Assembly: GCA_031431395.1 (NCBI GenBank)
Contig: JANPDJ010000001.1
Span: forward strand, 1-60,721
Reading direction: 5' to 3'
Origin: Chloroflexota bacterium
GTDB lineage: Bacteria > Chloroflexota > Limnocylindria > Limnocylindrales > CSP1-4
Length of the DNA: 60,721 bases
The notes beneath the pieces are model-generated. The model was not told where the DNA came from, made no database searches, and worked only from the letters and a program-made list of their open reading frames with translations. Numbering within the stretch: position 1 is the first letter of the stretch; each line of letters starts with the position of its first letter. Positions 31,484 to 47,506 of this stretch are shown one piece after another. A program made the position numbers and the translations under genes.

Positions 31484-32638
31484 ATGCGGCCCGTCGTGAC
31501 CCTCATCCTGGTTCCACCGCGTTCGGCGCCCGAACACACGCCGGCCGCCTGGCTCGAGTCGGCACGCGAGGCGGGCGCAGAGCGGCACCGCGCGGCGTTC
31601 AGCCGACTCGGGACGGACGCCCGCGTGGTCCGTGAGCCGCCGGACGGACGCCCGTTCGGGCGGCGACTCCGGGAGTTGGTCGCCCCGATCGCTGCCTCCG
31701 CAGCGCAGCGCCGGGTTGGCCTGATCCTGGTGAGCGGAGGAGCGCTGCCCCTGGCCGACCCCGCGGATCTCGAGGCCTTCGTCGCGACCGCGCGTGCGAC
31801 TGCACGACGGGCGTGCACCAACAGCTTCTACTCGGCCGACGCGATCGCCGTTTCGGACGCGCGCCTCCTCCTCGCCATGCCGGACCTGCCATCCGACAAC
31901 GCCCTGCCACGCTGGCTTGCAGAGGTCGCCGGCATCCCCGTCGCCGGCCTCCGCCACCGGCCCCGGCTGGAGTTCGACATCGACTCGCCGATCGACCTGC
32001 TCCTGCTCGCCCGCGACCAGGGCTGCCCGGCCGAATTCGCGACCCTTGCCGCGGAGATCGCGGCTGCCAACCAGCGGGCTGTCGCCGCGCTCCGGGGAGT
32101 GGCGGCGACCCTCGGCAACCGCCGGGCGGAGGTCGTCGTCTCGGGTCGCACGTCGTCGCGCGCGCTCGCATGGCTGGAGAGCCATGCCAGCTGCCGGGTT
32201 CGCGCTCTCATCGAGGAGCGGGGGCTGAAGGCGAGCACTTCGCTCGCCTTCAGCGGCGACGCCGCGCAGGACCCGACCGACGGTCGCCGGCGTCCGCCGC
32301 GATCCGCGCTGGGCCTGATCCTGGATGCGCGCGGACCGGGTGCCCTGGGCGCAGTCCTAGCTGAGTTGGGCGATGCTGCGGTCATTGACACGCGGGTCCT
32401 GCTGGCCCACCGGCTGGGAGCCGGGGAAGCACGCTGGCCCTCGCTCGCCGACCGCCTGGCGTCCGACCTGCTCCTGCCGGAGGAGATCGCGGACGGCTGG
32501 CTCCGAGAACTCACCCTGGCGGCCCTGGAGGCGCCCATCCCGGTGCTCCTCGGCGGGCACACCCTCGTGGGACCGGGTCTGCCGCTGATCGCAGGCCACG
32601 CCGCCACCTCCGCCCTCGACGCCGCGGACAGAGGCTGA
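31484..32638 (+). CDS. Hypothetical protein; stop overlaps the MidA start (TGATG)
   Basis: Ala/Arg-rich but non-repetitive ORF (LILVSGGALPLADPADLEAFV, NSFYSADAIAVSD). I recognise no family. Start uncertain (ORF begins at 31451). Confidence 0.5.
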   Translation: MRPVVTLILVPPRSAPEHTPAAWLESAREAGAERHRAAFSRLGTDARVVREPPDGRPFGRRLRELVAPIAASAAQRRVGLILVSGGALPLADPADLEAFVATARATARRACTNSFYSADAIAVSDARLLLAMPDLPSDNALPRWLAEVAGIPVAGLRHRPRLEFDIDSPIDLLLLARDQGCPAEFATLAAEIAAANQRAVAALRGVAATLGNRRAEVVVSGRTSSRALAWLESHASCRVRALIEERGLKASTSLAFSGDAAQDPTDGRRRPPRSALGLILDARGPGALGAVLAELGDAAVIDTRVLLAHRLGAGEARWPSLADRLASDLLLPEEIADGWLRELTLAALEAPIPVLLGGHTLVGPGLPLIAGHAATSALDAADRG

Positions 32639-33834
32639 TGGACGGTGGCCTGCGCCGCGATCCGAGGCCGGGTGGCCCGACGCTCCATTCGGATCCGGAC
32701 GTGGTCGCGCTGATCCGGGACGAGATCGCCCGCACTGGCCCGATCACGTTCGCCCGCTTCATGGATCTCGCGCTGTACGCACCGGCCCTGGGCTACTACA
32801 CCTCGCCGCCGACGAGAATCGGGCGGCGAGGCGACTTCCTCACGGCACCCGAAACGCACCCGATCTTCGGCGCAGCGCTCGCCCGGCAGGTCGCCGACGC
32901 CTGGCATCGACTCGGCAGACCGCCGGAGTTCACGGTCCGCGAATACGGGGCTGGTCGGGGCGCTCTCGCCGAGGCGATCATCCGGACCCTCGCGGCCGAC
33001 GAACCGGAACTGGCCCACGCTCTGCGGTACGAGGCCGTGGAGATCAATCCCCATCGCCGGGACGAACTCGTCCGACGCCTCGCCGATGCGCTGCCGGGTG
33101 CGGCCTTCTCAGCCCTTGGTCCCGCGACGGCAGCCGGATCGGCACCGGCGCCCGCCGGGCTCGTCCTCGCAAACGAGTTTCTCGATGCGTTCCCGGTCCA
33201 TCGCGTGGAGCAGACGGCTGGCGGCCTGCGCGAGCTCTACGTGGACTGGCGGGACGAGGCCCTCGTCGACGTGCCGGGGCCGGCCTCGACGCCCCTCCTG
33301 GCCGAGCGGCTGGAAGCCGAAGGGATCCGGTTGGAAGCAGGGCAGCGGGCCGAGATCGCCCTGGGCCTGGACGGCTGGCTGGCCGAGGTGGCCCGCTGGC
33401 TCCGGCGCGGCTTCGTCATCGTCATCGACTACGGCTACCCGGCGGACGACCTGTACGCGCGCCGGCGGCGCGCCGGCACCCTCATGGGCTACGTGGATCA
33501 CCACCCCGTGGACGATCCGCTTGTCGCTGTGGGCCGCCAGGACCTGACAACCCACGTGGACTTCACTGCCGTCGAGCGCGCCGCGACGGCAGCGGGGCTC
33601 ACGACCATCGGGTCCACGACGCAGGCCTCGTTCCTCGTCTCGCTCGGGCTCGAGGACCTGCTGGAGCGGGCCCGGTCAAGCCCGGACCTGCGGCTGGAGG
33701 AATACCTCGAACTGCGGTCGGGCATCGTGCGCCTGCTCGATCCGCGTCACACGGGTGGATTTCGCGTGCTGGTACTGGGCCACGACGCGGACGCCGGGCA
33801 GCCGCTGCTGGGCTTGCACCGAGTTTCGCGGTGA
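32638..33834 (+). CDS. MidA/NDUFAF7-family (DUF185) SAM-dependent methyltransferase
   Basis: ITFARFMDLALYAPALGYY, GDFLTAPETHPIFG, EYGAGRGALA and ANEFLDAFPVHRV are hallmark MidA motifs. Confidence 0.85.
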   Translation: MDGGLRRDPRPGGPTLHSDPDVVALIRDEIARTGPITFARFMDLALYAPALGYYTSPPTRIGRRGDFLTAPETHPIFGAALARQVADAWHRLGRPPEFTVREYGAGRGALAEAIIRTLAADEPELAHALRYEAVEINPHRRDELVRRLADALPGAAFSALGPATAAGSAPAPAGLVLANEFLDAFPVHRVEQTAGGLRELYVDWRDEALVDVPGPASTPLLAERLEAEGIRLEAGQRAEIALGLDGWLAEVARWLRRGFVIVIDYGYPADDLYARRRRAGTLMGYVDHHPVDDPLVAVGRQDLTTHVDFTAVERAATAAGLTTIGSTTQASFLVSLGLEDLLERARSSPDLRLEEYLELRSGIVRLLDPRHTGGFRVLVLGHDADAGQPLLGLHRVSR

Positions 33835-33967: not shown

Positions 33968-34324
33968 GTGACCGGGATCTGGTACATCCTTGGGTTTGCC
34001 TTCGCCGGCCTGTCGTTCGTGTTCCTCACGATCGGCGCGGCATGGCTGATCTCCCATCGGAATCGCGGCGATGTCCACAAGGGCCTGCCGTACGAGAGCG
34101 GGATCGACACGTACGGCGATCCCCACGGGCGGTTCGGCCTGTCCTTCTACATCTATGCGTTGCTGTTCGTCGCGTTCGACATCGAGGTGATCTTCATCTA
34201 CCTCTGGGCGATCGTGTTCCGCGACCTCCTGATGAGCGGCTTCGTGAGCATGCTGATCTTCGTCGCCATCCTCCTGCTCGGCCTCGCCTACGCCTGGCGA
34301 AAGGGCGTCCTCACATGGCGCTGA
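33968..34324 (+). CDS. nuoA: NADH-quinone oxidoreductase subunit A
   Basis: 118 aa, 3 TM helices. [28 protein letters not shown]. Confidence 0.92.
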
Positions 34325-35088
34325 GCGGTCCGGGGGAAGGTGCCACGGGTGATTCGGGCGGGACTCCAGAGAGCGGCGGCGGCATGACGGCCCGTGAGTC
34401 GAGCCGATCCTCCAGCCTGCCGGCCGTCATCGAGACGGGCGACTCGGCCGTCATGGAACCCATCGTGGTCCCGAACACCCTCTGGCAGTCCACCAATCCG
34501 GCCGCGTACAGCGGCGGCACGCCCACCGACATCACGCACCTCCGCGAGCTTGGGCTCACGGAGGCCATGCGCCACAACGATGCCCGCTGGGGCGCCCTCG
34601 AGGTGATCCCCACCAAGGCGGACTACGTCCTGGACCTTCTCCGCGCAAACAGCCTGTGGCCGCTCTTGTCGGGCCTGGCCTGCTGCGCCATCGAGATGAT
34701 GTCGGCGGCCACCAGCAAGAACGACATGGACCGCTGGGGCATGTTCCCGTTCCGCGCCAGCCCGCGCCAGGCGGACGTGCTGATCGTCGCCGGGACGCTC
34801 ACCACCAAGATGGCCGGGCCGCTTGTGCGGCTCTGGGAGCAGATGCCAGAGCCAAAGTGGTGCGTGGCCATGGGCGATTGCACGATCTCCGGCGGCCGGT
34901 ACAAGCGGTCCTACTCCACGGTGGAAGGCATCGACCGCGTGATGCCCGTGGACGTCTATGTCCCCGGCTGCCCGCCCCGCCCGGAGGGCCTCATCTACGG
35001 GATGATGCGGCTCCAGCAGTTGATCAAAGACCGCCGGGGTCACTGGCCCGAGCGGGCGGTCGGCCCAACCGTTCCGGATCGTGTCTAG
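34315..35088 (+). CDS. nuoB: NADH-quinone oxidoreductase subunit B (N2 cluster) with a long N-terminal extension
   Basis: [43 protein letters not shown]. Start uncertain; ATG at 34315 overlaps the nuoA end. Confidence 0.88.
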
Positions 35089-35097
35089 GCCAGCCTG

Positions 35098-35649
35098 ATG
35101 GATCGTGCGCTCAAGCTGCGCCTGGAAGCGCGCTTCACGGATCGGCTGACCGGGCCGGTGCGCCAGCGCCATGACGCGACGGAGATCCGTATCGGGGCCG
35201 GCGACGTGCCGGACACGCTGCGCACCCTCCACGACGACCCGTCGTTCCGGTTCGAGTTCCTGTCGGACCTGGCCGGCGTCGACACGGGGCTCGTCATGCA
35301 GGTCGTGTACCACCTGTGGAGCGAGACCACCTCGGACTGGCTGAGGGTCATCGCGGACGGGCTGTCGCGCGAGGATCCGCGCGTCCCTTCCATCACGTTC
35401 CTCTGGCAGGGCGCGGAGTGGATGGAACGCGAGGCCTACGACATGTTCGGCATCACGTTCGAGGGGAACCGGGACCTGCGGCGGATCTACATGCCCCCGG
35501 ACTACACGAGTTTCCCTCTCCGCAAGGACTTCTTCCTGGCCGACGATGCCGCCCGCTCGCCGGGCGCCGGCGTGCGCCACCAGGAGCAGACCCACACGCC
35601 CCGCAACGCGCCCCCGGGACGCGCCATCCGCGTGGCTAAGGAGGCCTGA
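35098..35649 (+). CDS. nuoC: NADH-quinone oxidoreductase subunit C
   Basis: FEFLSDLAGVD, PSITFLWQGAEWMEREAYDMFGITFEGN.DLRRI. Confidence 0.9.
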   Translation: MDRALKLRLEARFTDRLTGPVRQRHDATEIRIGAGDVPDTLRTLHDDPSFRFEFLSDLAGVDTGLVMQVVYHLWSETTSDWLRVIADGLSREDPRVPSITFLWQGAEWMEREAYDMFGITFEGNRDLRRIYMPPDYTSFPLRKDFFLADDAARSPGAGVRHQEQTHTPRNAPPGRAIRVAKEA

Positions 35650-36882
35650 GTGACCGCTCAACCAGGCTCCGGGACCCGCCGCGCATCCAGCGACGATCCG
35701 CGCGTGATGCTCGACATCGACGCCGGGGCGTACGAGCCGGTGCCGCCGTACCCGCCCCGCACGGAGCGTGAAGCCGAGTTCTACACGCTCGCCGACGGCG
35801 AGATGTTCGTGAACATGGGCCCGCAGCACCCCTCCACGCACGGCGTTCTGCGGGTCGTGCTGAAGCTCCGCGGCGAGCAGGTCGTGGACCTGGACCCCGT
35901 CCTCGGCTACCTCCATCGCGGCGTGGAGAAACTGGCGGAGAACGCGGACTACCACCACACCATCGCCTACATGGACCCGCTCGAGTACATCTCCTCGCTG
36001 TTCTGCGAGTGGCCGGCAGTGATGGCCTTCGAGAAGCTGCTCGACGTGGAGGTGCCCCGTCGCGCGGAGTACATCCGTGTCCTGTCCACGGAGCTGAACC
36101 GGGTCGCCAGCCATGCCCTGTTCATGGGCTGGTTCGCGCTTGACCTGGGCGGCCTGACGCCGGTCCTCTGGAGCTTCATCGAACGCGACGAGATCGTGGA
36201 GATGCTGGGCGCGCTGACCGGGGCGCGGATGCTCTTCAACTACATGCGGATCGGCGGCGTCAACGGAGATCTGAACCACGAGTTCATGAGCCGCCTGGGA
36301 GCGTGGATGAGCCGCGCCGGCACGCATATCGACTCGAACACGAAGCTGCTCAACGAGAACGAGATCTTCGTCCGCCGCTCGCGAGGTCTCGGTGTCGTGG
36401 ACCGCGAGACGGCGGTCCGGATGTGCATGACGGGACCCAACCTGCGCGCAACGGGCGTGCCATTCGACGTCCGCCGCGCACACCCCTACAGCGTGTTTCC
36501 GGAGCTGGACTTCGACATCCCCACACGGACGGAGGGCGATTCGCTCGCACGCTACCTCCTCCGCGTGGACGAGATCAAGCAGAGCCTGCGAATCATCGAC
36601 CAGTGCCTCCACCAGATGCCTGACGGCCCGATCATGGCGAAACTGCCGCGCAGGCTGACACCCCGACCCGGCCGTGCCTACGCTGCCGTGGAGAGCCCCC
36701 GGGGGCAGTACGCCGTGTACGCGATGAGCGACGGCACGGACCAGCCGTTCCGGCTGCGCATCCACGATCCCTCGTTCGTCCATCTCCAGAGCGTCGGCCT
36801 CCTGATGCCGGGCAATCTCGTCGCGGACACGATGGCGATCATGGCCTCGCTGGACCCGGTCATGGGGGGCGTGGACAAGTGA
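35650..36882 (+). CDS. nuoD: NADH-quinone oxidoreductase subunit D
   Basis: NMGPQHPSTHGVLRVVL, GYLHRGVEKL, YMRIGGV, ESPRGQYAVY, DPVMGGVDK. Confidence 0.95.
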   Translation: MTAQPGSGTRRASSDDPRVMLDIDAGAYEPVPPYPPRTEREAEFYTLADGEMFVNMGPQHPSTHGVLRVVLKLRGEQVVDLDPVLGYLHRGVEKLAENADYHHTIAYMDPLEYISSLFCEWPAVMAFEKLLDVEVPRRAEYIRVLSTELNRVASHALFMGWFALDLGGLTPVLWSFIERDEIVEMLGALTGARMLFNYMRIGGVNGDLNHEFMSRLGAWMSRAGTHIDSNTKLLNENEIFVRRSRGLGVVDRETAVRMCMTGPNLRATGVPFDVRRAHPYSVFPELDFDIPTRTEGDSLARYLLRVDEIKQSLRIIDQCLHQMPDGPIMAKLPRRLTPRPGRAYAAVESPRGQYAVYAMSDGTDQPFRLRIHDPSFVHLQSVGLLMPGNLVADTMAIMASLDPVMGGVDK

Positions 36883-36913: not shown

Positions 36914-38254
36914 ATGACGTCCGTTTCGCGCGCCTGGGGCCGGCTGACCCTGCCGGGCAAGATCATCTTCACCCTGGTGCCGCTCCTGCTGGCGATGACG
37001 GTCGGCCTGCTCGTCGCGGTGGTGCTCGTCGGGCCCTACGTCCTGCAGTTCCTGGGCGACAACCTGCCCCTCGTGCGCTTCGTCGTCGCGGCCACGGCCG
37101 TGCTCCTGATGTCGATCCCCACGGCCTTCATCATCATCTACATGGAGATGAAGGTCATCGCGCTGATGAACCTTCGCATCGGACCGGACCGCGTTGGACC
37201 CTACGGGTCGCTCCTGTCGGTGGTCCACGGGCTCAAGGTCCTCATGAAGGAGGACTTCACCCCAACCGGGGCGGATGCGCCCGTGTTCACCCTCGCGCCC
37301 GCCGTGGTCTACCTGGGCGCGGTGATGTCGCTGCTCGTGATTCCGTTCGCCCCGGGGCTCTTCGGGCAGGACTTCAACATCGGCCTGCTGTATTTCTTCG
37401 CGGTGAGCGGCCTCAGTGTCGTCGGCCTGATGATGGCCGGCTGGTCCAGCTACAACAAGTACTCGCTGCTGGGCGGCCTGCGGTCCGCGGCCCAGGTGAT
37501 CAGCTACGAGATCCCGCTCACCCTTTCGGTGGTGGGCCTGCTCCTGCTGGCCGGCACGATGAGCCTCAACACGATCGTCCTCAACCAGTCCGGCACTGCG
37601 CTCGACTGGTACATCTTCCGCCAGCCGCTGGGGTTCCTGATCTTCTTCATCGCCGCGACCGCGGAGGCCAACCGCACGCCGTTCGACCTCACGGAGGCCG
37701 ACTCGGAGATCGTCGCGGGCTTCGCCACGGAGTACTCGGGGATGCGCTTCGGGTTCCTCTTCTTCGCCGAGTACGTCGGGGTGTTCGTCGTTTCTGCGAT
37801 GACGGTGACCCTGTTCTTCGGCGGCTGGAACGCCCCCTTCAACTGGCCGTGGCCGGTCACCGCCAGTCTCGACCCGGGCAGCCTGGGCATCCTGCTACTC
37901 ATCCTGGTCGCCATCGTCCCGGTCCTTGGGACCCTGCTGTTCGCCGCGCCGTTCTGGCTGCTCCGCTCGTCGATGCCGGGCTGGCAGGCGCTGATCATCG
38001 GCTTCCTGATCTTCAATTTCGTGGCCGTGGGAGCTGTCCTCGGGTGGGCATTCATCAGCTTTGACTGGGTCGTGGGTCTGCTCTGGTTTATGCTGAAGAC
38101 CTACGGTTTCGTGTTCACCTTCGTCTGGATGCGGGGGACGTTGCCGCGCGTCCGGATCGACCAGCTGATGGGATTCGCCTGGAAATGGCTGCTGCCCGCC
38201 TCCCTGCTGAACCTGTTCGTGACGGCCGGTGCGCTCATCGTGCTGAACCGCTGA
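36914..38254 (+). CDS. nuoH: NADH-quinone oxidoreductase subunit H (long form)
   Basis: MEMKVIALMNLRIGPDRVGPYG..LKVLMKEDF, AEANRTPFDLTEADSEIVAGFATEYSGMRF. Confidence 0.92.
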   Translation: MTSVSRAWGRLTLPGKIIFTLVPLLLAMTVGLLVAVVLVGPYVLQFLGDNLPLVRFVVAATAVLLMSIPTAFIIIYMEMKVIALMNLRIGPDRVGPYGSLLSVVHGLKVLMKEDFTPTGADAPVFTLAPAVVYLGAVMSLLVIPFAPGLFGQDFNIGLLYFFAVSGLSVVGLMMAGWSSYNKYSLLGGLRSAAQVISYEIPLTLSVVGLLLLAGTMSLNTIVLNQSGTALDWYIFRQPLGFLIFFIAATAEANRTPFDLTEADSEIVAGFATEYSGMRFGFLFFAEYVGVFVVSAMTVTLFFGGWNAPFNWPWPVTASLDPGSLGILLLILVAIVPVLGTLLFAAPFWLLRSSMPGWQALIIGFLIFNFVAVGAVLGWAFISFDWVVGLLWFMLKTYGFVFTFVWMRGTLPRVRIDQLMGFAWKWLLPASLLNLFVTAGALIVLNR

Positions 38255-38312: not shown

Positions 38313-39140
38313 ATGAGCTTCATCCCCGGGATCGGGATCGCAAAGGGCATGGCCCTGACGCTGCTCCGATTCTTCCAGCCCAAGGTGACCATCCGCTACC
38401 CGGAAGTCGCCGCGGATGTCTCCCCGAAGTTCCGGGGCCGCCTGCAGCTCCTCTACGACGAGTGGGGCACGCTCAAGTGCGAGACCTGCTTCCAGTGCGC
38501 GCAGGCCTGCCCCATCGAGTGCATCGACATGGGCGGGACGGACACCAAGGGCCGGTATCACGTCCACTGGGGCGCGGCGGAAACGTACGGCGAGCGGCGC
38601 GATGAATCCGCGCTGCGGCGTTCGGGCAGGCCGGTCCCGGACGAGGCCTACAGCCACGATCAGCCCATGAATCTCGAGGCCGTGGACGCGATCCTCGCGG
38701 CGTATGACCACGATCCAGGGTCGATGCTCCAGATCCTGGGCGACGTGCAGGACACCTACGGCTACCTGCCCGTGGCGGCGCTGAAGCGGATCAGCACGTC
38801 CACCGGTGCCTGGTACGCGATGATCTACGGTACTGCGTCGTACTACCGCCATCTGCGATTCGATCCGCCGGGCCAGTCCGTCGGCATCTGCCGCTGCACG
38901 AGCTGCCTGATCAGCGGGGGTGGTCGGATCCAGGAGGCGCTGGAACGCGGGCTCCGGGCCAGCCTCGGCAAGACTCCGTTGAGCGGCGGGATCCGGCTGG
39001 AACAGCTGCCCAACCATGTCGCGGGCGCGTCATCGCCTCTCGTGATGGTCGCCGGCGAGCCCGTCGCACTGACGCCGGAAACGGCGGAGCCCTGGGCTCG
39101 TGGCCTGGCGCCACAGTCCGGCACCCGGGCACAGGCCTGA
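38313..39140 (+). CDS. Fusion protein: NuoI N-terminal half (one 4Fe-4S motif) + NuoE-like thioredoxin-fold domain
   Basis: Residues 1-88: PKVTIRYPE, KFRGRL, and C56-x2-C59-x2-C62-x3-C66-P (38478-38513). A second ferredoxin motif is absent in all frames. Residues ~118-250: YDHDPGSMLQILGDVQDTYGYLP..IYGTASYYRHLRFDPPGQSVGICRCTSCLISGG (NuoE-like). Confidence 0.8.
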   Translation: MSFIPGIGIAKGMALTLLRFFQPKVTIRYPEVAADVSPKFRGRLQLLYDEWGTLKCETCFQCAQACPIECIDMGGTDTKGRYHVHWGAAETYGERRDESALRRSGRPVPDEAYSHDQPMNLEAVDAILAAYDHDPGSMLQILGDVQDTYGYLPVAALKRISTSTGAWYAMIYGTASYYRHLRFDPPGQSVGICRCTSCLISGGGRIQEALERGLRASLGKTPLSGGIRLEQLPNHVAGASSPLVMVAGEPVALTPETAEPWARGLAPQSGTRAQA

Positions 39141-39144
39141 GGTC

Positions 39145-40476
39145 ATGACAACGCTGCTCGCCACACCGGCCGGCTGGCCGCAGATCCTGCTGGCACGAGC
39201 CAGGAAAGCCGCGCCCGTCGGCAGCCCCGGCTCGGCGACGGCGACCGGCCCGTTCGCAGGACTCCGGATCGCGATCGAGCGGCTCGGCCCGGAAGGCACG
39301 ATCAGAGCGATCGAGCAGTCGGGCCTGCGCGGCCGAGGTGGGGCAGGCTTTCCCACCGGCACGAAATGGCGCAAGGCCGCCGCCACCGAGGCATCGCGCC
39401 GGTACGTCGTCGCCAACGGATACGGCGCCGATCCGGCCGTCTCCATCGACCAGGTCCTCATGGAGCGGGACCCGTTCGGGCTGCTTGAGGGCGTCGCCAT
39501 CGCCGCGTACGCAATCGGCGCGTCCGAGGCCGTCATCGCGGTGCGCGCGGAATACGCGGAGGCCGCCCGCGGACTGGAGGCCGCCATCCTGGCGGCAGAG
39601 GCAGCCGGGTTCCTGGGCGCGGACATCCTGAGCTCGGGCGTCGATCTGACCGTCACGGTCCGGACCGTGCAGGGCGCCTACATGCTGGGCGAGGAGACGG
39701 TCCTCCTGAAGGCCCTCGAAGGCAAGCGCGGGCAGCCGGAACAGCGGCCGCCGCACCCGGCGGAGCGGGGGATGTTCGGGCAGCCCACGGTCGTCCAGAA
39801 CATCGCCACCCTGATCGCCGTCCCGTGGATCCTCGTGAACGGCGCGGAGGCGTGGCGGGCCATCGGCACGCCGGACGCACCCGGAACCGTGCTCGTCCAG
39901 GTCAGCGGCGCGGCCGCGAACGGGATCGCGGAGGTGCCCACGGGCACCACCTTGGCGCAGATCATCGACCTTGCGGGCGGCGTGGTGCCGGGCCGTCGGG
40001 TGAAGGCAGTCCTCGTCGGCGGGCCATCCGGCGGGCTCCTGCCGGCGACGGCACTGGACACCCCGTATGACTTCGGGCCGTTGCGCGCCGCGGGCGCCCA
40101 CGTGGGCTCTGGCTCCATCGTGGTCGCCGACGAGCGGACGTGCGTGGTGGACCTGGCTCGCCTCCTGACGGCGTTCTGCGCCGACGAGGCATGCGGCAAG
40201 ACCATCCCGTGCCGGATCGGGACACGCCGGATCGCCGAGATCGGGGACCGCGTGACGAGCGGTCGGCCGCGCCCCACGGACCTGCAGCTCCTGGCGGACC
40301 TCAGCCATGATGTGGTCGCGTCCGCGCTATGCGATCACGAGCGCCTGGCGACCCTTCCGTACGCCAGCGCGATGCGATACTTCCGCTCCGAGCTCGACGA
40401 CCACGTTCTCCGCAGCTCCTGCCCGGCCGGTGTCTGCCGCCCCATCGCGGTGGCCGGCGTTGCGGCGGGCTACTGA
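39145..40476 (+). CDS. nuoF: NuoF-like subunit with divergent FMN/NADH and N3-cluster signatures
   Basis: GLRGRGGAGFPTGTKW, QGAYMLGEETVLLKALEGKRGQPEQRPPHP, PTVVQNIAT. However, it has ANGYGADPAVS in place of CNADESEPGT, and C350-GK-T353-IP-C356...C396 in place of CxxCxxC...C. Confidence 0.85.
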   Translation: MTTLLATPAGWPQILLARARKAAPVGSPGSATATGPFAGLRIAIERLGPEGTIRAIEQSGLRGRGGAGFPTGTKWRKAAATEASRRYVVANGYGADPAVSIDQVLMERDPFGLLEGVAIAAYAIGASEAVIAVRAEYAEAARGLEAAILAAEAAGFLGADILSSGVDLTVTVRTVQGAYMLGEETVLLKALEGKRGQPEQRPPHPAERGMFGQPTVVQNIATLIAVPWILVNGAEAWRAIGTPDAPGTVLVQVSGAAANGIAEVPTGTTLAQIIDLAGGVVPGRRVKAVLVGGPSGGLLPATALDTPYDFGPLRAAGAHVGSGSIVVADERTCVVDLARLLTAFCADEACGKTIPCRIGTRRIAEIGDRVTSGRPRPTDLQLLADLSHDVVASALCDHERLATLPYASAMRYFRSELDDHVLRSSCPAGVCRPIAVAGVAAGY

Positions 40477-40485
40477 GGCCTTCCG

Positions 40486-43080
40486 ATGACCGATCTCGCC
40501 ATCCGACCCAGAGCCACGCTCGATCCCCTCGCGCATGCCGAGACGCTGCTGGACACCCAGGCGCCGCAGCGGCCGACGGCCACGCCCCGGATCCGGATCG
40601 AGGTGGACGGGCGCGTCGTGGAAGGCCTGGAGGGCCAGACCATCCTCGAGGTCTGTCGCGACAACGGCATCGAGATCCCCACGCTCTGCTACGAGCCCAA
40701 GCTGCCGGGCTTCGGGGCATGCCGGATGTGCGTCGTCGAGGTGGAGGGCGAGGAGCATCCGCCCATCTCCTGCTCGCGCGCCTGCGAAGACGGCATGAAG
40801 GTCCAGACGCAGACGGAAGAGGTGCGGCGCCTCCGCCGGACCAACCTCGAGCTGATCTTCAGCGACCACAACGCGTACTGCCTGCCGCCGTGCCAGAACA
40901 AGTGCCCCAGCCACATCGACATCCCGGGCTTCCTGAAGCAGAACGCGGAGGCGAACTGGCGCGAGTCCGTGCGGATCTTCAAGCGGACCATCCCGTTCCC
41001 TTCGGTCCTGGGGCGGGTCTGTCCAGCCCCGTGCGAGGAGCACTGCCGTCGCGACGAGGTGGACGAGGCGATCGCGATCCGCGACTCGCACCGATATGCC
41101 GGCGACCAGGTGATCAGGGCGATGCTCAACGAGAACGTGGACCCGCCGGTCCCGTTCGAGGTCCAGCCCCGGAGCGGACGCCGGATCGCCGTGATCGGAT
41201 CCGGGCCGGCGGGCGCCACCGCTGCGTACTACCTCCTGATCGCCGGCCACGACGTGACCATCTTCGAACGGGACCCCATGCCGGGCGGGATGCTCCGCTA
41301 CGGCATCCCGCAGTACCGGCTTCCCAAGGTGGAGGTCCTCGAGGCGGAGTACGAGGGCATCGTGCGGCTCGGCGGCCGGTTCGTGACGAACCAGGGCCTC
41401 GGGCGCGATTTCACGCTGGACGACCTGCAGAACCAGGGGTTCGACGCGGTCTGCGTCGCCATCGGCTGCTACGACACGAACAAGCTGGGGATCCCCGGCG
41501 AAGACGGCACCGGCGTCATCGACGGCCTGGACTACCTGCGCACGGCCACCCTGGGCCTCGAATACCCGGGCCACGCCGGGAGCCGCGTCGTGGTCATCGG
41601 CGGCGGCTTCACCTCGATGGACTGCACCCGCACGTCCGTCCGGCTGGGCGCGGCGGAGGTCACGCTGGTCTACCGGCGCGACATGAAGGACATGCCCGCC
41701 TCCGACGAGGTGCACGAGGCCATCGAGGAAGGCGCCACGGCGATCTTCCAGGCGGGCCCGGTCCGGATCGTGACCGACGCCACCAACACGGTCACGGGCG
41801 TGGAGTTCATCCGGATGAAGCTTGGCGAGCCGGATGCGTCCGGTCGCCGCCGCCCGGAGCCTGCCCCCGGTACCGAGTTCACGATCCCGTGCGACCGCGT
41901 CCTCCTGGCCATCGGCCAGGGCCCGGACCTGACATGGATCGGCCCCGGCTCCGATGGACCGAAGGCCAGCAAGCAGCGCCGCCTCGTTGCCGACGCGGTC
42001 ACCTTCGAGACCGGACGGCCGGGTGTCTTCGGCACAGGTGACGTGCGCATCGGCGCGGCGACCGTCGTGCAGGCCATCGCGGAGGGCCGCCGGGCCGCCT
42101 ATGCCGTGGATGCGTACGTCAAGGGCCTGGACCTGGCCGCCATCCGGACCCGCCAGACGCTGGCCGAGCCCCAGCCCGAGTTCCTGTCCATCGTGCCGTT
42201 CACCAGCGAGATCAAGGAGCCCCGCATCCGCCTGAAGAAGATGGAGGCGGAGGCCAGGAATCGCAGTTACATCGAGTACGAGATCCCCTACACGCGGGCC
42301 GAGGCGGTCGCGGAGTCCACGCGCTGCCTCCAGTGCACCTGCGAGGCGATCGGCTTCTGCGACCTGCGGCGGCTGGGGATCGAGTACGGCACAACCCTTG
42401 CGACGCTCGAGCCGCACCACAACTCCGGTGCAGGCTACCGCTCCGTGACCGAGAACCGGTTCACCGGCTACAACCACGACTACATCCGCGATGACTCACA
42501 CGCGTTCATCCTGCGCGAGCCGTCCCGCTGCATCGACTGCGGCCGTTGCGCGCAGGTCTGCTCGGAAGTGGTGGGCGCGGCCTGCTACGACTTCATGCGG
42601 ATCGGCTTCGACACCCTGGTGACGACGCCGCTGGATATGAGCCTCAACGACACGCCGTGCGTCTCGTGCGGCCGCTGCGCCGAGACCTGCCCCACGGGCG
42701 CGCTCATGCCCAAACCGCGGGTGCTGCAGAAGTACGAGGTCGACGAAAGCCGCTGCATCCTGTGCGGCATCTGCGTGGACGCCTGCCCGTATGACGCGCT
42801 CCGCGACAGCACGGAATTCGAGCTGTCCCACGAGTCGCGGGCAGAACCCATGATCGACCTGCTGTCCTACTCCGCCGTCAACCAGGAGACGGAAGTCACG
42901 TACATCCGGCGCGAGCGCGACTGGGCGGAGCGCGCCATGGCGGACGGCCGGCTGCTGGACACCGGACGCCTGCTGCCGATGCTGCCGGCGTCCATCGCGA
43001 ACGGCAACGGGAATGGACATGGCAACGGCCACGCGCACGACCACGGAGGCGCGGGCGCCACCGCGGGGCGGCACAAGTAA
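40486..43080 (+). CDS. Chimeric Fe-S flavoprotein: NuoG-type 2Fe-2S N-terminus + GltD-like FAD/NAD(P)H domain + 2x[4Fe-4S] region + NuoI C-terminal half
   Basis: - 2Fe-2S: TLCYEPKLPGFGACRMCVVEV...SC.
- GltD part: SDHNAYCLPPCQNKCPSHIDIPGFL, GRVCPAPCEEHC, IAVIGSGPAGATAAYYL, GGMLRYGIPQYRLPK, VVVIGGGFTSMDC, VFGTGDV.
- 2x[4Fe-4S]: RCIDCGRCAQVC and CVSCGRCAETCPTGAL.
- NuoI-like end: KYEVDESRCILCGICVDACPYDAL..FEL...DLL.
- No molybdopterin-like NuoG body. Confidence 0.85.
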   Translation: MTDLAIRPRATLDPLAHAETLLDTQAPQRPTATPRIRIEVDGRVVEGLEGQTILEVCRDNGIEIPTLCYEPKLPGFGACRMCVVEVEGEEHPPISCSRACEDGMKVQTQTEEVRRLRRTNLELIFSDHNAYCLPPCQNKCPSHIDIPGFLKQNAEANWRESVRIFKRTIPFPSVLGRVCPAPCEEHCRRDEVDEAIAIRDSHRYAGDQVIRAMLNENVDPPVPFEVQPRSGRRIAVIGSGPAGATAAYYLLIAGHDVTIFERDPMPGGMLRYGIPQYRLPKVEVLEAEYEGIVRLGGRFVTNQGLGRDFTLDDLQNQGFDAVCVAIGCYDTNKLGIPGEDGTGVIDGLDYLRTATLGLEYPGHAGSRVVVIGGGFTSMDCTRTSVRLGAAEVTLVYRRDMKDMPASDEVHEAIEEGATAIFQAGPVRIVTDATNTVTGVEFIRMKLGEPDASGRRRPEPAPGTEFTIPCDRVLLAIGQGPDLTWIGPGSDGPKASKQRRLVADAVTFETGRPGVFGTGDVRIGAATVVQAIAEGRRAAYAVDAYVKGLDLAAIRTRQTLAEPQPEFLSIVPFTSEIKEPRIRLKKMEAEARNRSYIEYEIPYTRAEAVAESTRCLQCTCEAIGFCDLRRLGIEYGTTLATLEPHHNSGAGYRSVTENRFTGYNHDYIRDDSHAFILREPSRCIDCGRCAQVCSEVVGAACYDFMRIGFDTLVTTPLDMSLNDTPCVSCGRCAETCPTGALMPKPRVLQKYEVDESRCILCGICVDACPYDALRDSTEFELSHESRAEPMIDLLSYSAVNQETEVTYIRRERDWAERAMADGRLLDTGRLLPMLPASIANGNGNGHGNGHAHDHGGAGATAGRHK

Positions 43081-43154: not shown

Positions 43155-43691
43155 TTGGCGATCCCGTCAACCGTGCCGTTCATCGGGCTGAGCTGGGACG
43201 ACGTGCTGTTCCTGCTCTTTGCGACCACGATGATCGGGACGGCTCTGCTTGTCGTGTCGATGCGCGACATCATTCGCTGCGGCCTGGCGATGATGGCGTC
43301 ATTCGGCGCACTCGCCGGCATCTACGTCCTGCTGGGCGCCCCGCTCGTGGCTGCAGCCCAGGTACTGATCTACATCGGCGCCATCGCGGTTCTCATCCTG
43401 TTCGCCATCATGCTCACCCAGTCGAAGGCCGCGCCCGCCCGCCTCGTGTTCCAGACGCAGGCAGTTCCGGCCGGCATCGCCGCCGTGATCCTCGCCGTGG
43501 TCATCGCATTGACGGTCACGGCCACGGACTGGGGCGCGGTCACGAGCCGCCTCGGCACCGCGACGGACGAACTTGCGAGGCTGCTCTTCCGTGACTACGT
43601 GCTGCCGTTCGAGATCGTCAGCGTCCTGCTGCTGGCCGCGGTCATCGGCGGGGTATTCCTCGCGAAGCGCGAGGAAGGCGGGCCGCAATGA
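43155..43691 (+). CDS. nuoJ: NADH-quinone oxidoreductase subunit J
   Basis: TTG start after a purine-rich SD. AAAQVLIYIGAIAVLILFAIML, FEIVSVLLLAAVIG. Confidence 0.88.
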   Translation: MAIPSTVPFIGLSWDDVLFLLFATTMIGTALLVVSMRDIIRCGLAMMASFGALAGIYVLLGAPLVAAAQVLIYIGAIAVLILFAIMLTQSKAAPARLVFQTQAVPAGIAAVILAVVIALTVTATDWGAVTSRLGTATDELARLLFRDYVLPFEIVSVLLLAAVIGGVFLAKREEGGPQ

Positions 43692-43999
43692 GCAACTCGC
43701 TCGACGCCTACCTCGTGCTGTCCGGGATCATCTTTGCCATCGGCACATTCGGCTTCCTGGCGCGCCGGAACGCCATCAGCATGCTCATGTCCATCGAACT
43801 CATGCTGAATGCCGTCAACCTCGCGATCGTCGCGTTCGGGTCGTTCGTGGAGGCGCTCAGGACGGCGTCCTCCGTCATCGCACTGATCGTGATGGCCGTC
43901 GCGGCGGCGGAAGCCACCGTGGGCCTCGCGATCGTGATCGCCATCTACCGCAACCGCCGCACGCCGCTGGTCGATGAGTACGACACGCTGCGCCAGTAA
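43688..43999 (+). CDS. nuoK: NADH-quinone oxidoreductase subunit K
   Basis: 103 aa. MLMSIELMLNAVNLA, AAAEATVGLAIVIAIYR. ATGA overlap with nuoJ. Confidence 0.92.
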   Translation: MSNSLDAYLVLSGIIFAIGTFGFLARRNAISMLMSIELMLNAVNLAIVAFGSFVEALRTASSVIALIVMAVAAAEATVGLAIVIAIYRNRRTPLVDEYDTLRQ

Positions 44000-44014: not shown

Positions 44015-45964
44015 ATGGAGACCCTGATCCCGCTCATTCCGGCCCTGCCCCTGGCCGGGTTCGTCTTCACCGGGCTGTTCGGCCGGCGGCTGGGCAAGCG
44101 CGCCTCACTCGTGCCCGTGCTTGCGGTCGTGGCCTCCTGGATGATCGCCATGGTGGTCGTCTACAACGCGCTCACCGGCTCGGGCGCCTTCGCGGGCGGC
44201 CAGGGCGTGGAGGTCCACCTCTGGAACTGGATCCCGGCGGGCGCGTTCCAGGTCCAGTTCGGCTTCTACGCGGACAACCTCACGGCCTGCCTCCTGATCG
44301 TGGTCACCACGATCGGCATGCTCGTGCACGTCTACTCGCTCGGATACATGAGCCACGACCCCGGGTACTGGCGCTTCTTCGCCTACCTGAACCTGTTCAT
44401 GTTCTCGATGCTGCTCCTGGTCCTCGCGGACAACTTCCTGCTCGTATTCGCGGGCTGGGAGCTGGTGGGCCTGTCCAGCTACCTGCTCATCGGGTTCTGG
44501 TACCGCAGGCGGTCGGCCGCCCTTGCCGCCAAGAAGGCCTTCATCGTGAACCGCGTCGGAGACGTGGGGTTCGCCCTGGGGATCATGGCGATCTTCGTGT
44601 CGCTGGGCACGCTCAACATCCGCGAAGTCATCGAGCGGATCGGCACCCTCGACCACACTCAGATCACGGTGATCGCCCTGCTGCTCTTCGCGGGCGCCAT
44701 GGGCAAGAGCGCCCAGTTCCCGCTCCACGTGTGGCTCCCGGACGCGATGGAGGGCCCCACGCCCGTGTCCGCCCTGATCCACGCGGCGACGATGGTCAAC
44801 GCGGGCGTCTACCTGGTGGCCCGGGCGAACCCGATCTTCGCCCACGCGCCGGAGGCGATGGTGGTGGTCGCGGCCGTCGGCATCTTCACCGCAATCCTGG
44901 CCGCGTCCATCGCGTTCACCCAGACCGACATCAAGCGTGTGCTCGCGTACTCCACGCTGAGCCAGCTGGGCTACATGTTCGCCGCGCTCGGCGTGGGAGC
45001 ATGGACGGCGGCCATCTTCCATCTCATGTCGCACGGCTTCTTCAAGGGCCTGCTGTTCCTTGATTCGGGCTCGGTGATCCACGCCGTGGACGGGGAACAG
45101 GACATGCGCCGGATGGGTGGACTGCGCCGCCGGATCCCCATCACGTACGCGACGATGTTCATCGGGTCCGTGGCCATCTCCGGCATCCCACCCCTCGCCG
45201 GTTTCTTCAGCAAGGACGAGATCCTGGGCGAGGCCTTCAAGAACGGCTTCCTGTGGGTCTGGGCCATCGGCCTCCTCGTGGCTGGCATGACGGCGTTCTA
45301 CATGTTCCGGCTCATGGGCCTCACGTTCTGGGGCAAGAGCCGCGTGGACCCGGCCGTCGAGCCGCACATTCATGAGTCACCGCGATCCATGACCCTGCCG
45401 CTGCTCGTCCTGGCCGTCCCGAGCGTCCTCCTCGGCCTGGCGATCGGCTGGCCCCTCGGGAGCGGCCAGCTCCGCACCTGGCTCGAGCCCGTGTTCCACG
45501 AAGCGGTGGAGCTCGCGGCGCGCCCGGAAGCCGCGTATGCCTTCTTCGGGGTTGACGGCGCCCTCCTGATCACGAGCGTCGCCGTGGCCACCCTGGGAAT
45601 CATCGGCGCGTGGGCGCTCTTCGGACTCGAGCTCCCGGGCATCCGGCGCGCCGGCAACCCGGATCGCGTCCGCAGCCTCGCGGGCCGGATGCCGTTCCTG
45701 TACCGCGCGTCGCTCAACAAATGGTGGTTCGACGAGCTCTACGACCTCCTGTTCATCCGCATCGGCGGCCGGATCGCGGCCTTCCTCTGGTGGTTCGACC
45801 GGGCGGTGGTGGACGGAACGGTGAACGGCGTGGGGGCGCTCACCGCGGACGCCGGGCGCGGCCTGCGGCGCTTCCAGACCGGCCACGTGCAGAACTACGC
45901 CCTCGGCATCGCGATCGGCCTGATCGTCATGGCGGGCGGCTATCTCGTGATTGCGGGGCGGTAG
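44015..45964 (+). CDS. nuoL: NADH-quinone oxidoreductase subunit L
   Basis: FAGWELVGLSSYLLIGFW, GKSAQFPLHVWLPDAMEGPTPVSALIHAATMV, and a C-terminal lateral-helix region. Confidence 0.95.
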   Translation: METLIPLIPALPLAGFVFTGLFGRRLGKRASLVPVLAVVASWMIAMVVVYNALTGSGAFAGGQGVEVHLWNWIPAGAFQVQFGFYADNLTACLLIVVTTIGMLVHVYSLGYMSHDPGYWRFFAYLNLFMFSMLLLVLADNFLLVFAGWELVGLSSYLLIGFWYRRRSAALAAKKAFIVNRVGDVGFALGIMAIFVSLGTLNIREVIERIGTLDHTQITVIALLLFAGAMGKSAQFPLHVWLPDAMEGPTPVSALIHAATMVNAGVYLVARANPIFAHAPEAMVVVAAVGIFTAILAASIAFTQTDIKRVLAYSTLSQLGYMFAALGVGAWTAAIFHLMSHGFFKGLLFLDSGSVIHAVDGEQDMRRMGGLRRRIPITYATMFIGSVAISGIPPLAGFFSKDEILGEAFKNGFLWVWAIGLLVAGMTAFYMFRLMGLTFWGKSRVDPAVEPHIHESPRSMTLPLLVLAVPSVLLGLAIGWPLGSGQLRTWLEPVFHEAVELAARPEAAYAFFGVDGALLITSVAVATLGIIGAWALFGLELPGIRRAGNPDRVRSLAGRMPFLYRASLNKWWFDELYDLLFIRIGGRIAAFLWWFDRAVVDGTVNGVGALTADAGRGLRRFQTGHVQNYALGIAIGLIVMAGGYLVIAGR

Positions 45965-45967
45965 GCA

Positions 45968-47506
45968 ATGGACATCACCGGCCTGCCGATCCTGACGCTG
46001 ATCACCTTCGCGCCGCTGGTGGGGGCGATCCTCATCGCGTTCATCCCGCGAAGCAGCGCCGGCCTGGTCCGGGCAACGGCACTGGGGACGAGCCTTGTGT
46101 CGTGGGCGCTGTCGCTGTTCCTGCTCGTTGGTTTCCTGCCCTCGCACCCGAACTTCCAGTTCGTGGAGCGGGCGGACTGGATCTCCGCATTCGGGATCCA
46201 GTACAAGCTTGGCGTTGACGGCCTCTCGCTCGTCATGGTGGTTCTGACCACCACGCTCACGTGGATCTCGATCCTCGCCAGCTTCGGGCCGATCAAGGAA
46301 CGGGTGAAGGAGTACATGATCTCCTTCCTCATCCTCGAGGTCGGCATGCTCGGCGTGTTCGTTGCCCTCGACCTGTTCCTCTTCTACATCTTCTTCGAGA
46401 TCGTTCTCGTGCCGATGTACCTGATCATCGGCATCTGGGGCGGGGCAAACCGCATCTACGCGACGATCAAGTTCGTCCTGTACACGCTGGTGGGCTCTCT
46501 GCTGATGCTGGTGGGCATCCTGGCCACCGCATTCGCCTTCCAGGCGGCGCACGGGGGCAACTGGGCGGGAGCCTTCGACTACGAGACGCTGCGCCAGTTC
46601 AGCTTCGACAGCACCCTGCAGTTGTTCGCATTCCTCGCCTTCTTCCTGGCGTTTGCGATCAAGATCCCGATGTTCCCGTTCCACACGTGGCTGCCCGACG
46701 CCCACGTGGAGGCTCCCACCGCCGGCTCCGTGATCCTGGCGGGGGTTCTCCTCAAGCTGGGTGGATACGGGTTCATCCGTTTCGCGGTTCCGCTCTTCCC
46801 CGAGGCCGCCCATACCTACGCGCCGGCGATCATCCTGCTGAGCGTCATCGCGATCATCTACGGGGCCATCGTGGCTCTCGTCCAACCAGACCTGAAGAAG
46901 CTGGTGGCCTATTCATCGGTCAGCCACATGGGCTTCGTGACGCTGGGCATCTTCGTGTTCCAGGAGCAGGGACTCCAGGGCGCGATCCTGCAGATGGTCA
47001 ACCACGGGCTGATCACGGGCGCGCTGTTCCTCCTCGTCGGGGTGCTCTACGAGCGGACCCACGACCGGACGATTGCGAAGATGGGCGGGCTTTCGGCGCA
47101 GATGCCCGTCTATGCCGTCGCCTTCGGGTTCTTCATGCTGGCCTCGGCCGGGTTGCCCGGGCTCTCCGGCTTCATCGGCGAGTTCCTCGTCTTCGTGGGC
47201 TCCTTCGCGTATTCCCCGGCCGTCGCGGCAGCGTCAACGATCGTGATGGTCTTTGCCGCCGGGTACCTGCTCTGGATGTTCCAGCGGATGTTCTTCGGCG
47301 AACTGTCTGACTTCTTCAAGAACGCCATCGGCCACCTCGACGACCTGCGGCCGACGGAAGTGCTGACGCTGGTCCCGCTCGGCGTGCTGGTTGTCGTCTT
47401 CGGCCTGTTCCCGGGCCTCCTTCTCACGCTTGTCCAGGGCACGGTCACGGAGGTGCTCCACGGCGCCGCACAGGCGAGCGCCATCAACCTGGCGTTCTGG
47501 CAGTAG
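45968..47506 (+). CDS. nuoM: NADH-quinone oxidoreductase subunit M
   Basis: FYIFFEIVLVPMYLIIGIWGG, KIPMFPFHTWLPDAHVEAPTAGSVILAGVLLK. Confidence 0.95.
   Translation: MDITGLPILTLITFAPLVGAILIAFIPRSSAGLVRATALGTSLVSWALSLFLLVGFLPSHPNFQFVERADWISAFGIQYKLGVDGLSLVMVVLTTTLTWISILASFGPIKERVKEYMISFLILEVGMLGVFVALDLFLFYIFFEIVLVPMYLIIGIWGGANRIYATIKFVLYTLVGSLLMLVGILATAFAFQAAHGGNWAGAFDYETLRQFSFDSTLQLFAFLAFFLAFAIKIPMFPFHTWLPDAHVEAPTAGSVILAGVLLKLGGYGFIRFAVPLFPEAAHTYAPAIILLSVIAIIYGAIVALVQPDLKKLVAYSSVSHMGFVTLGIFVFQEQGLQGAILQMVNHGLITGALFLLVGVLYERTHDRTIAKMGGLSAQMPVYAVAFGFFMLASAGLPGLSGFIGEFLVFVGSFAYSPAVAAASTIVMVFAAGYLLWMFQRMFFGELSDFFKNAIGHLDDLRPTEVLTLVPLGVLVVVFGLFPGLLLTLVQGTVTEVLHGAAQASAINLAFWQ

Follow-up and report, generated by a model that had tools for sequence, protein, structure and literature searches.

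The nuo operon and its fused genes

We analysed a 60,721-nucleotide stretch of DNA from a Chloroflexota bacterium of the class Limnocylindria (NCBI GenBank assembly GCA_031431395.1, contig JANPDJ010000001.1, positions 1 to 60,721; the whole stretch is referred to as the window), following up a preliminary description which had singled out the open reading frame (ORF) at 38313–39140 as carrying only the N-terminal half of NuoI. This subunit belongs to the core set of 14 in respiratory complex I and as a rule is a single small protein. The ORF lies within a complete nuo operon on the forward strand, in the order nuoA-B-C-D-H-[I(N)::E]-F-[G'::GltD::I(C)]-J-K-L-M-N. Both ends of the usual nuoI position are occupied by NuoI-like sequence, an N-half directly downstream of nuoH (36914–38254; PF00146, 345.6 bits) and a C-half directly upstream of nuoJ (43155–43691; PF00499), whilst the two halves are 4.2 kb apart and a three-gene cassette (E, F and G'/GltD) takes up the gap.

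The ORF at 38313–39140 encodes 275 aa and, on the basis of the ORF call, Pfam, NCBIfam and homologues, consists of a NuoI N-half, a conserved linker and a NuoE-like domain. The N-half (residues 1–88; 38313–38576) includes the NuoI-specific N-terminal region (..KGM..TL..FF.PKVT..YPE...FRGR..L), and aligns both to NuoI models and to TYKY/NuoI chains in the PDB. Residues 9–84 of the fusion match positions 13–89 of the 180 positions in NF004536 (E = 1.7e-14), and the alignment to TIGR01971 covers positions 1–66 of 121 (E = 2.1e-13, 49.9 bits), i.e. the N-terminal half of the model only; searched alone, the N-half matched NuoI models at E = 2.9e-15. A motif scan found exactly one CxxCxxCxxxCP motif in the ORF, CETCFQCAQACP at 38478–38513 (C56, C59, C62, C66 and P67), and the two copies that mark a NuoI within one polypeptide are thus not found here. 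These results bear out the preliminary description in that the ORF holds a NuoI N-half with a single cluster motif and then runs on into a NuoE-like domain, and in none of the profile alignments does it contain a two-cluster NuoI. The E-values, together with conservation among thousands of homologues, lie well outside what chance would give. The further proposal that a local frameshift could not restore NuoI also proved correct, as no Cys motif is present in any of the six frames of 38560–38760 and the in-frame stretch lacks Cys altogether.

The segment joining the two domains (residues 89–124; 38577–38684) had been described as a hydrophilic linker. Such a segment does exist, but it is not loose: in a five-sequence alignment of the window's clade (A2), from which the consensus ..AxExYxERREESALRRSGRPVPD.. 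was taken, 11 positions were invariant (E90, Y92, E94, R95, A100, R102, R103, S104, G105, P107 and P109), and it may form a contact surface. This conservation, at 38577–38657, is seen inside the Limnocylindria clade; a second, distant clade, which is described below, has a short unrelated connector in its stead.

The NuoE-like domain is of the thioredoxin-type [2Fe-2S] family (residues 125–251 by PF01257, 69 bits against a cut-off of 24.8; 38685–39065), with NfnC (9n5u_C), 9bov_C and StnA (8oh5_A) as its closest matches in the PDB. Its ligands, within residues 193–235 (38889–39017), depart from the four-Cys NuoE pattern C-x4-C ... C-x3-C, in that the first pair (C193, C198) is kept and the second replaced. 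C193, C195, C198 and H235 are invariant in all 41 sequences of the window's clade, whilst the second clade has C193, G195, C198, C234 and C238 in 29 of 29. This pattern suggests that a 3Cys-1His metal site replaces the canonical four-Cys [2Fe-2S] site in the window's clade. Plain loss of the cluster was also considered and was rejected for this clade, C195 and H235 being invariant replacements. In a Limnocylindria sub-clade (L054, L067, L068, L070, L076 and L079–L082, with the match at ~7001–7570 in each) the fusion protein is only 218–227 aa in length; the NuoI N-half, the linker and the helical portion of the NuoE domain are retained, and the protein ends in a Cys-free tail of ~35 residues in place of the cluster-binding half, which, to judge from these sequences, has truly been lost. 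When the 275 aa fusion was modelled with AlphaFold2 from a 70-sequence alignment, the predicted local distance difference test score (pLDDT) was mostly 75–95 in the NuoE domain (with blocks of 69 and 74 at residues 161–180) and 36–72 in the N-half, and confidence was low in the linker. The low values in the N-half are loosely in keeping with a segment that would need its partner and clusters in order to fold.

Location of the second NuoI half

Throughout all six frames of the window we detected only four CxxCxxCxxxC motifs, one of which is that of the fusion ORF; the other three, starting at 42529, 42658 and 42754, all fall within the ORF at 40486–43080. This third gene of the cassette specifies a protein of 864 aa, which by Pfam and NCBIfam is itself a fusion of NuoG', GltD-like and NuoI parts. 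It begins with an N-terminal [2Fe-2S] domain (Fer2_4, residues 35–110; 40588–40815; PF13510, E = 4.6e-21), followed by a GltD/NfnB-like domain (residues 132–546; 40879–42123; PF14691 and PF07992) with two [4Fe-4S] sites, a flavin adenine dinucleotide (FAD) site and an NAD(P)H site. The latter domain matches NfnI (5jca_L) and GltD (2vdc_G) in the PDB, and its GxGxxG motifs are visible in the translation. Next come a NuoG/HydA-type 2x[4Fe-4S] domain (residues 675–740; 42508–42705; PF22117, Fer4_Nqo3) and the NuoI C-half (residues 744–818; 42715–42939; TIGR01971 and NF004537), and the translation closes with an Asn/Gly/His-rich low-complexity tail, ..NGNGNGHGNGHAHDHGG.. (42988–43077).

The motifs at 42529 and 42658 form the complete pair of the NuoG/HydA-type domain, which leaves the third, at 42754, as an orphan. 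It is to the segment around this orphan, and not to the other two motifs, that positions 71–114 of 121 in TIGR01971 and positions 100–147 of 204 in NF004537 map. When the C-half was searched alone, its best matches were again NuoI models (E = 1.6e-11; 43.2 bits against TIGR01971), and it aligns to residues 152–197 of TYKY, including the EFEL region that follows the motif. The second motif, which the preliminary description had found to be absent in every frame, is indeed missing near the break, but by its sequence relationships it is relocated to 42754 rather than lost, a profile search having placed the NuoI C-half at ~42715–42939, at the end of the third inserted gene. As one motif lies in the first protein of the cassette and three in the last, and as the profile matches of the two are complementary, nuoI is split in the loop between its halves.

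Joining the parts in silico (residues 1–81 of the fusion ORF followed by 'YEVDESRC...') produced a sequence that aligns to TIGR01971 in one stretch, from position 1 to position 114 of 121, with a score of 94.4 bits (E = 3.5e-27), and to the TYKY chain 7ar7_I at residues 23–144 (E = 2.3e-22), which is the whole conserved core. Such a full-length, collinear alignment to the NuoI profile and to solved chains was obtained only with the spliced N-half plus C-half. A duplicated 'RY.V/ID' strand flanking the break (GRYHVHW in the N-half, KYEVD in the C-half) was also considered as a mark of the insertion, and was rejected because it is inconsistent in other lineages.

Identity of the inserted genes

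The middle gene of the cassette (39145–40476; Pfam Complex1_51K and NADH_4Fe-4S) encodes a NuoF-like flavoprotein of 443 aa. Its top matches in the PDB are StnB (8oh5_B, 359 bits) and HydB (355 bits), with NfnB also amongst them, whilst the best true NuoF is that of M. smegmatis (8e9g_F, 292 bits). The alignment to StnB covers the core only, residues 125–527 of 584, and of the extra cluster domains of BfuB proteins (an N-terminal [2Fe-2S]/Zn domain and a C-terminal 2x[4Fe-4S] domain) Pfam detected neither in the NuoF-like protein of the window; both are present in the second clade (L083 and L084). Non-bifurcating homologues are reported to lack these extra domains (PMC9304861). The flavin mononucleotide (FMN) site retains GRGGAGFPTG and GAYMLGEET. 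The motif for cluster N3 reads CGKTIPC, and in each of the 41 Limnocylindria-type sequences from which the motif was recovered Thr or Ser takes the place of its second Cys, the fourth N3 Cys lying in a conserved LC[DAE]HE, usually LCDHER; the second clade keeps CGKCVPC.

The 864 aa protein aligns over residues 36–767 with residues 4–699 of the StnC-like chain 9bov_A (541 bits), and scores 486 bits against StnC (8oh5_C) and 479 bits against NfnA (9n5u_A), as is expected of a BfuA protein of the Nfn/Stn type. StnC is composed of a Fer2 domain, a GltD-like NADPH/FAD insertion and a NuoG-like part, and ends in an inactive FdhF-like domain in which the clusters C1 and C2 form a dead-end branch (PMC10482914); the architecture of NfnA has likewise been published (PMC12018979). 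The alignment to the StnC-like chain stops where the FdhF-like domain begins, and the NuoI C-half is found there instead. By these comparisons, it is the StnABC/NfnABC transhydrogenases of the Bfu family that the inserted E-F-G' genes most closely resemble. Gene clusters termed 'Nuo-Bfu', 'Mbh-Bfu' and 'Por-Bfu' have been predicted (PMC9304861), and the present operon, in which BfuABC genes stand in place of nuoEFG, agrees with the definition of the first of these.

Conservation and distribution

Homology searches with the 275 aa fusion returned 2858 homologues, and those listed are 270–310 aa in length and cover 88–100 % of the query. In a genome scan that was seeded with alignment A2, and that consequently covers the window's clade only, at least 512 species genomes (one genome per species) encode a relative; a ten-sequence alignment across all lineages (A1) was too diverse to serve as a seed. 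Among the 80 genomes listed, almost all are metagenome-assembled genomes labelled Chloroflexota or Candidatus (Ca.) Limnocylindria/Limnocylindrales. The order nuoH, N-half::E, F, Fer2, GltD, ferredoxin domain, C-half, nuoJ recurs in every fetched locus that is long enough, one of which sits on a 3.68-Mb contig.

All 55 large ORFs that we recovered contain exactly three motifs, and the C-half core, which starts with KY[ED], is nearly unchanged in the 53 loci of the window's clade, two having KF for KY. The NuoG-type ferredoxin domain is 85–100 % identical in 54 of the 55 related loci covering it, with L027 showing 92 % over a cut fragment. Within the module the NuoF-like protein is the least conserved across loci (31–49 % identity), and the GltD-like domain reaches 74–92 %, with outliers at 57 % and 66 %. 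In the N-half, none of the 70 aligned homologues, which were drawn from two deep clades, departs from the Cys and Pro residues of the motif.

More distant relatives came from a search of 50 %-identity cluster representatives, in which full-length relatives extend down to 26–30 % identity and four further locus types were found. The count of one motif in the NuoE fusion and three in the A-type protein holds in all five divergent lineages. The second clade comprises more than 1200 proteins, one of which is labelled Thermoleophilia by NCBI; these are 26–30 % identical to the window's fusion and are split at the same place. Its gene order is nuoABCDH, N-half::E (with four canonical Cys), a full F, Fer2::GltD::ferredoxin::C-half (824 aa) and nuoJKLMN. 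The F protein of this clade is StnB/HydB-like and 636–643 aa in length; it has a [2Fe-2S]-type domain at its N terminus and a 2x[4Fe-4S] domain at its C terminus (PF01257 and Fer4 domains being found in those of L083 and L084). The NuoI C-half of this clade is very NuoI-like.

Among the further loci, L087 has the layout of the window, whilst L085 (2076–6023) distributes the parts in another way: a single protein of 1048 aa combines the GltD domain with the NuoF/StnB-like part, and a HoxU-like protein of 265 aa, with nuoJ next to it, contains Fer2, a His-type cluster motif, two ferredoxin motifs and the C-half. The NuoI halves are neighbours of nuoH and nuoJ in L083–L085 as well. In L086 (1804–7726) and L088 (6819–14933) the same cassette, bracketed by the two half-ferredoxin segments, is instead found in a pyruvate:ferredoxin oxidoreductase (por) operon, in the order porG, porD, porA, [half::E], F, [A::GltD::ferredoxin::half::PorB thiamine pyrophosphate (TPP) domain], with an intact PorD upstream; here the N-half lacks the NuoI N-terminal region.

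Remaining genes of the operon

The other genes of the operon were assigned by Pfam. Upstream of nuoH are nuoA (33968–34324), nuoB (34315–35088), nuoC (35098–35649) and nuoD (35650–36882), and downstream of nuoJ are nuoK (43688–43999), nuoL (44015–45964), nuoM (45968–47506) and nuoN (47515–48978). Between nuoH and nuoJ no other gene was found that is able to supply NuoI, nor does the operon contain another electron-input module (N-module). A GAGG-type ribosome-binding site precedes the start of each gene. The start codon of nuoB was placed by comparison with the related locus L001, and in this form NuoB has a putative Gly/Ser/Pro-rich N-terminal extension of ~90 residues ahead of the conserved core, with a similar one in L001. 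Directly upstream of nuoA, both here (32638–33834) and in L001 (4321–5517), is a gene of the PF02636 (Methyltransf_28) family. We take this family to be that of NDUFAF7/MidA, which in mitochondrial complex I assembly methylates the NuoD homologue.

Alternative explanations

With nuoI split and the cassette placed in the gap, we consider it likely that the halves reassemble as a heterodimeric NuoI domain which both wires and holds the Stn/Nfn-type module. What we observe directly is that nuoI is split and its halves are fused to other proteins, how the genes are ordered, how far these features are conserved and to what the parts are homologous; reassembly of the halves, the path of the electrons and the substrates are deductions from them. 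The simplest objection, namely that a sequencing or assembly error, or decay into a pseudogene, broke a normal nuoI in one assembly by frameshift or rearrangement, draws some force from the composition of the window, as its G+C content of ~69 % gives rise to many long spurious ORFs. The fusion nevertheless recurs, with the gene order kept, across thousands of metagenome proteins and at least 512 species genomes that were assembled independently, the cluster ligands are all invariant, no frame near the break contains the motif and each gene is preceded by a ribosome-binding site. Recurrence in these genomes and in four divergent lineages therefore excludes a frameshift, a misassembly or a pseudogene, and we regard the chance of such an artefact as negligible. 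A second objection is that the N-half is a relic that serves as an anchor, the third motif of the G' protein merely adding one extra cluster, with a working, intact NuoI encoded elsewhere in the genome. Many Chloroflexota do have more than one nuo-type operon. Against a relic stand the four Cys and the Pro, kept invariant across clades that are 26–30 % identical, the strict count of one plus three motifs, the lack of anything else between nuoH and nuoJ that could supply NuoI, and the inability of half a motif set to hold a full cluster alone; as such, we consider this explanation unlikely.

It is also conceivable that each half pairs with itself or with some other partner, so that a dimeric complex might, for instance, contain a symmetric ferredoxin domain made of two N-halves, given that ferredoxin halves are pseudo-symmetric and that designed symmetric half-ferredoxin dimers exist. 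Both orphan halves are, however, always present in one operon in five divergent lineages, the cassette of the por operon included, and each resembles its corresponding NuoI half rather than both resembling the same one, which makes self-pairing very improbable. We give just as little credence to the idea that E-F-G' is a soluble Stn/Nfn transhydrogenase that merely resides in a nuo operon and passes no electrons to quinone. Whilst the nearest solved relatives are indeed soluble transhydrogenases and hydrogenases, the module begins and ends with proteins that contain the NuoI halves covalently, the NuoI C-half stands where StnC has its formate-dehydrogenase-like domain, and the operon has no other N-module or NuoI. 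The orphan halves always co-occur, and each is like its own half of NuoI; hence, reassembly into a single NuoI domain is the most economical interpretation.

A number of points nonetheless weigh against reassembly of a split NuoI that serves the module. Neither the spliced sequence (94.4 bits) nor either of its parts reaches the curated TIGR01971 cut-off of 113.05 bits, and AlphaFold2 gave the spliced NuoI a mean pLDDT of only 40.7, this being a single-sequence model made without an alignment. The search for NuoI spanned the 60.7-kb window and the related loci, and a conventional NuoI may be encoded elsewhere in the genome. Pairing of the halves with shared clusters is, in turn, what we infer from sequence. 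Finally, it is uncertain whether the FMN site feeds electrons into the chain, since in the window's clade the second Cys of N3 is lost and the NuoE ligands are changed or lost.

Proposed arrangement of the split NuoI

In 2x[4Fe-4S] folds, such as those of clostridial ferredoxins and of Nqo9/TYKY, each cluster is held by three Cys of one motif and a fourth from the other. By reason of this shared ligation neither half alone would bind a complete cluster. The N-half is translated as the N terminus of the NuoE-like protein and the C-half as the C-terminal segment of the NuoG'/GltD protein; under the arrangement that we favour, the two would pair into one two-cluster ferredoxin domain, with N6a and N6b at the interface of the two polypeptides. 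Electrons would then pass from the NuoG-type 2x[4Fe-4S] domain of the module to N6a, N6b, N2 and on to quinone, whilst the split NuoI would grip the E-F-G' module at its two ends and fix it to the quinone module, in the manner of a clasp.

Electrons likely enter at the FAD site of the GltD-like domain, and possibly also at the NuoF-like FMN/NADH site. The FAD and NAD(P)H Rossmann motifs of the GltD-like domain are intact, and an 'LVYRRD' within it would fit NADPH. Taken at the level of the genes, the enzyme is probably a proton-pumping NAD(P)H:quinone oxidoreductase. For the window's clade simple, non-bifurcating oxidation appears more likely, because the features linked to bifurcation are reduced (the domains of F, the N3 motif and the NuoE ligands). 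The second clade, which has the full Bfu-type set, could do more than plain NAD(P)H oxidation.

Comparison with known systems

Canonical NuoI (Nqo9, TYKY or NDUFS8, with clusters N6a and N6b) shares with the halves described here the N-terminal region, both CxxCxxCxxxCP motifs, the ..EFEL.. segment and the place between nuoH and nuoJ, but it is one polypeptide, whereas here there are two, encoded 4.2 kb apart and each fused to a subunit of the N-module. StnABC and NfnABC (8oh5 and 9n5u) resemble the cassette in their three-gene order, in being its top matches and in having the GltD-like insertion at the same place. They differ in that the inactive formate-dehydrogenase-like C-terminal domain of StnC gives way to the NuoI C-half, and in that the NuoE-like subunit gains the NuoI N-half; in the window's clade, additionally, the NuoF-like protein is without both extra cluster domains and the ligands of NuoE and N3 are altered. 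Furthermore, these enzymes are soluble, whilst the present one would be linked to the membrane through Nuo subunits.

The predicted Nuo-Bfu of Geobacter, Planctomycetes and Nitrospirae (PMC9304861) is alike in concept, with a Bfu-type input module in the middle of a nuo operon that would feed a proton-pumping quinone reductase. Its operons are described as encoding 14 subunits, A–N (PMC9304861); in the present operons the module is inside nuoI rather than between nuoD and nuoH, and is of the GltD-containing Nfn/Stn type. The hosts also differ: they are Chloroflexota (Ca. Limnocylindria), along with a clade of which one member carries the label Thermoleophilia. The bracketed cassette of L086 and L088, whose partner is pyruvate:ferredoxin oxidoreductase and not complex I, is probably the 'Por-Bfu' of Chloroflexi (PMC9304861). 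The text of that paper does not mention NuoI or a fusion. We found no description of the present arrangement in the literature, in searches that covered split or fused NuoI and NuoE, NuoI together with glutamate synthase, complex I of Limnocylindria, and NuoI, NuoE and NuoF of Dehalococcoides.

Implications for Limnocylindria and for complex I

As judged from sequence comparison, an Stn/Nfn-type input module flanked by the two halves of a split NuoI occurs widely in Ca. Limnocylindria and also outside this group, and current annotation fails to recognise it. The names assigned to the NuoE fusion by NCBI and JGI are 'NAD(P)H-dependent oxidoreductase subunit E', 'NADH:ubiquinone oxidoreductase subunit E' and 'formate dehydrogenase subunit gamma', and the best NCBIfam match of the 864 aa ORF is 'glutamate synthase small subunit'. 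The latter name is probably the one given to that protein by annotation pipelines. As a result, metabolic reconstructions of these lineages will score NuoI, and probably NuoG, as missing and complex I as incomplete. To our knowledge there is no other naturally split core iron–sulfur subunit of complex I, and the arrangement thus offers a natural test of how a 2x[4Fe-4S] domain is assembled from halves.

A broader and more tentative idea, which we consider possible though rather doubtful, is that the naturally split 2x[4Fe-4S] domain acts as a self-assembling electrical plug which joins an Stn/Nfn-type NAD(P)H module (and, where a full BfuB is present, a ferredoxin site) to varied partner enzymes. 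Complex I of the Limnocylindria and of the second clade would then oxidize NADPH as well as NADH, the clade with the full BfuB might confurcate electrons from NAD(P)H and ferredoxin onto quinone whilst pumping protons, and in other Chloroflexota the plug would connect to pyruvate:ferredoxin oxidoreductase.

Covalent fusion to both NuoI halves would represent a new way of attaching the electron-input module to the quinone module. It also links respiratory complex I directly with the soluble Stn/Nfn transhydrogenases, a connection relevant to the way in which the N-module was gained, and the GltD-like domain suggests that NADPH may enter respiration in a class of bacteria that is abundant in freshwater and soil.

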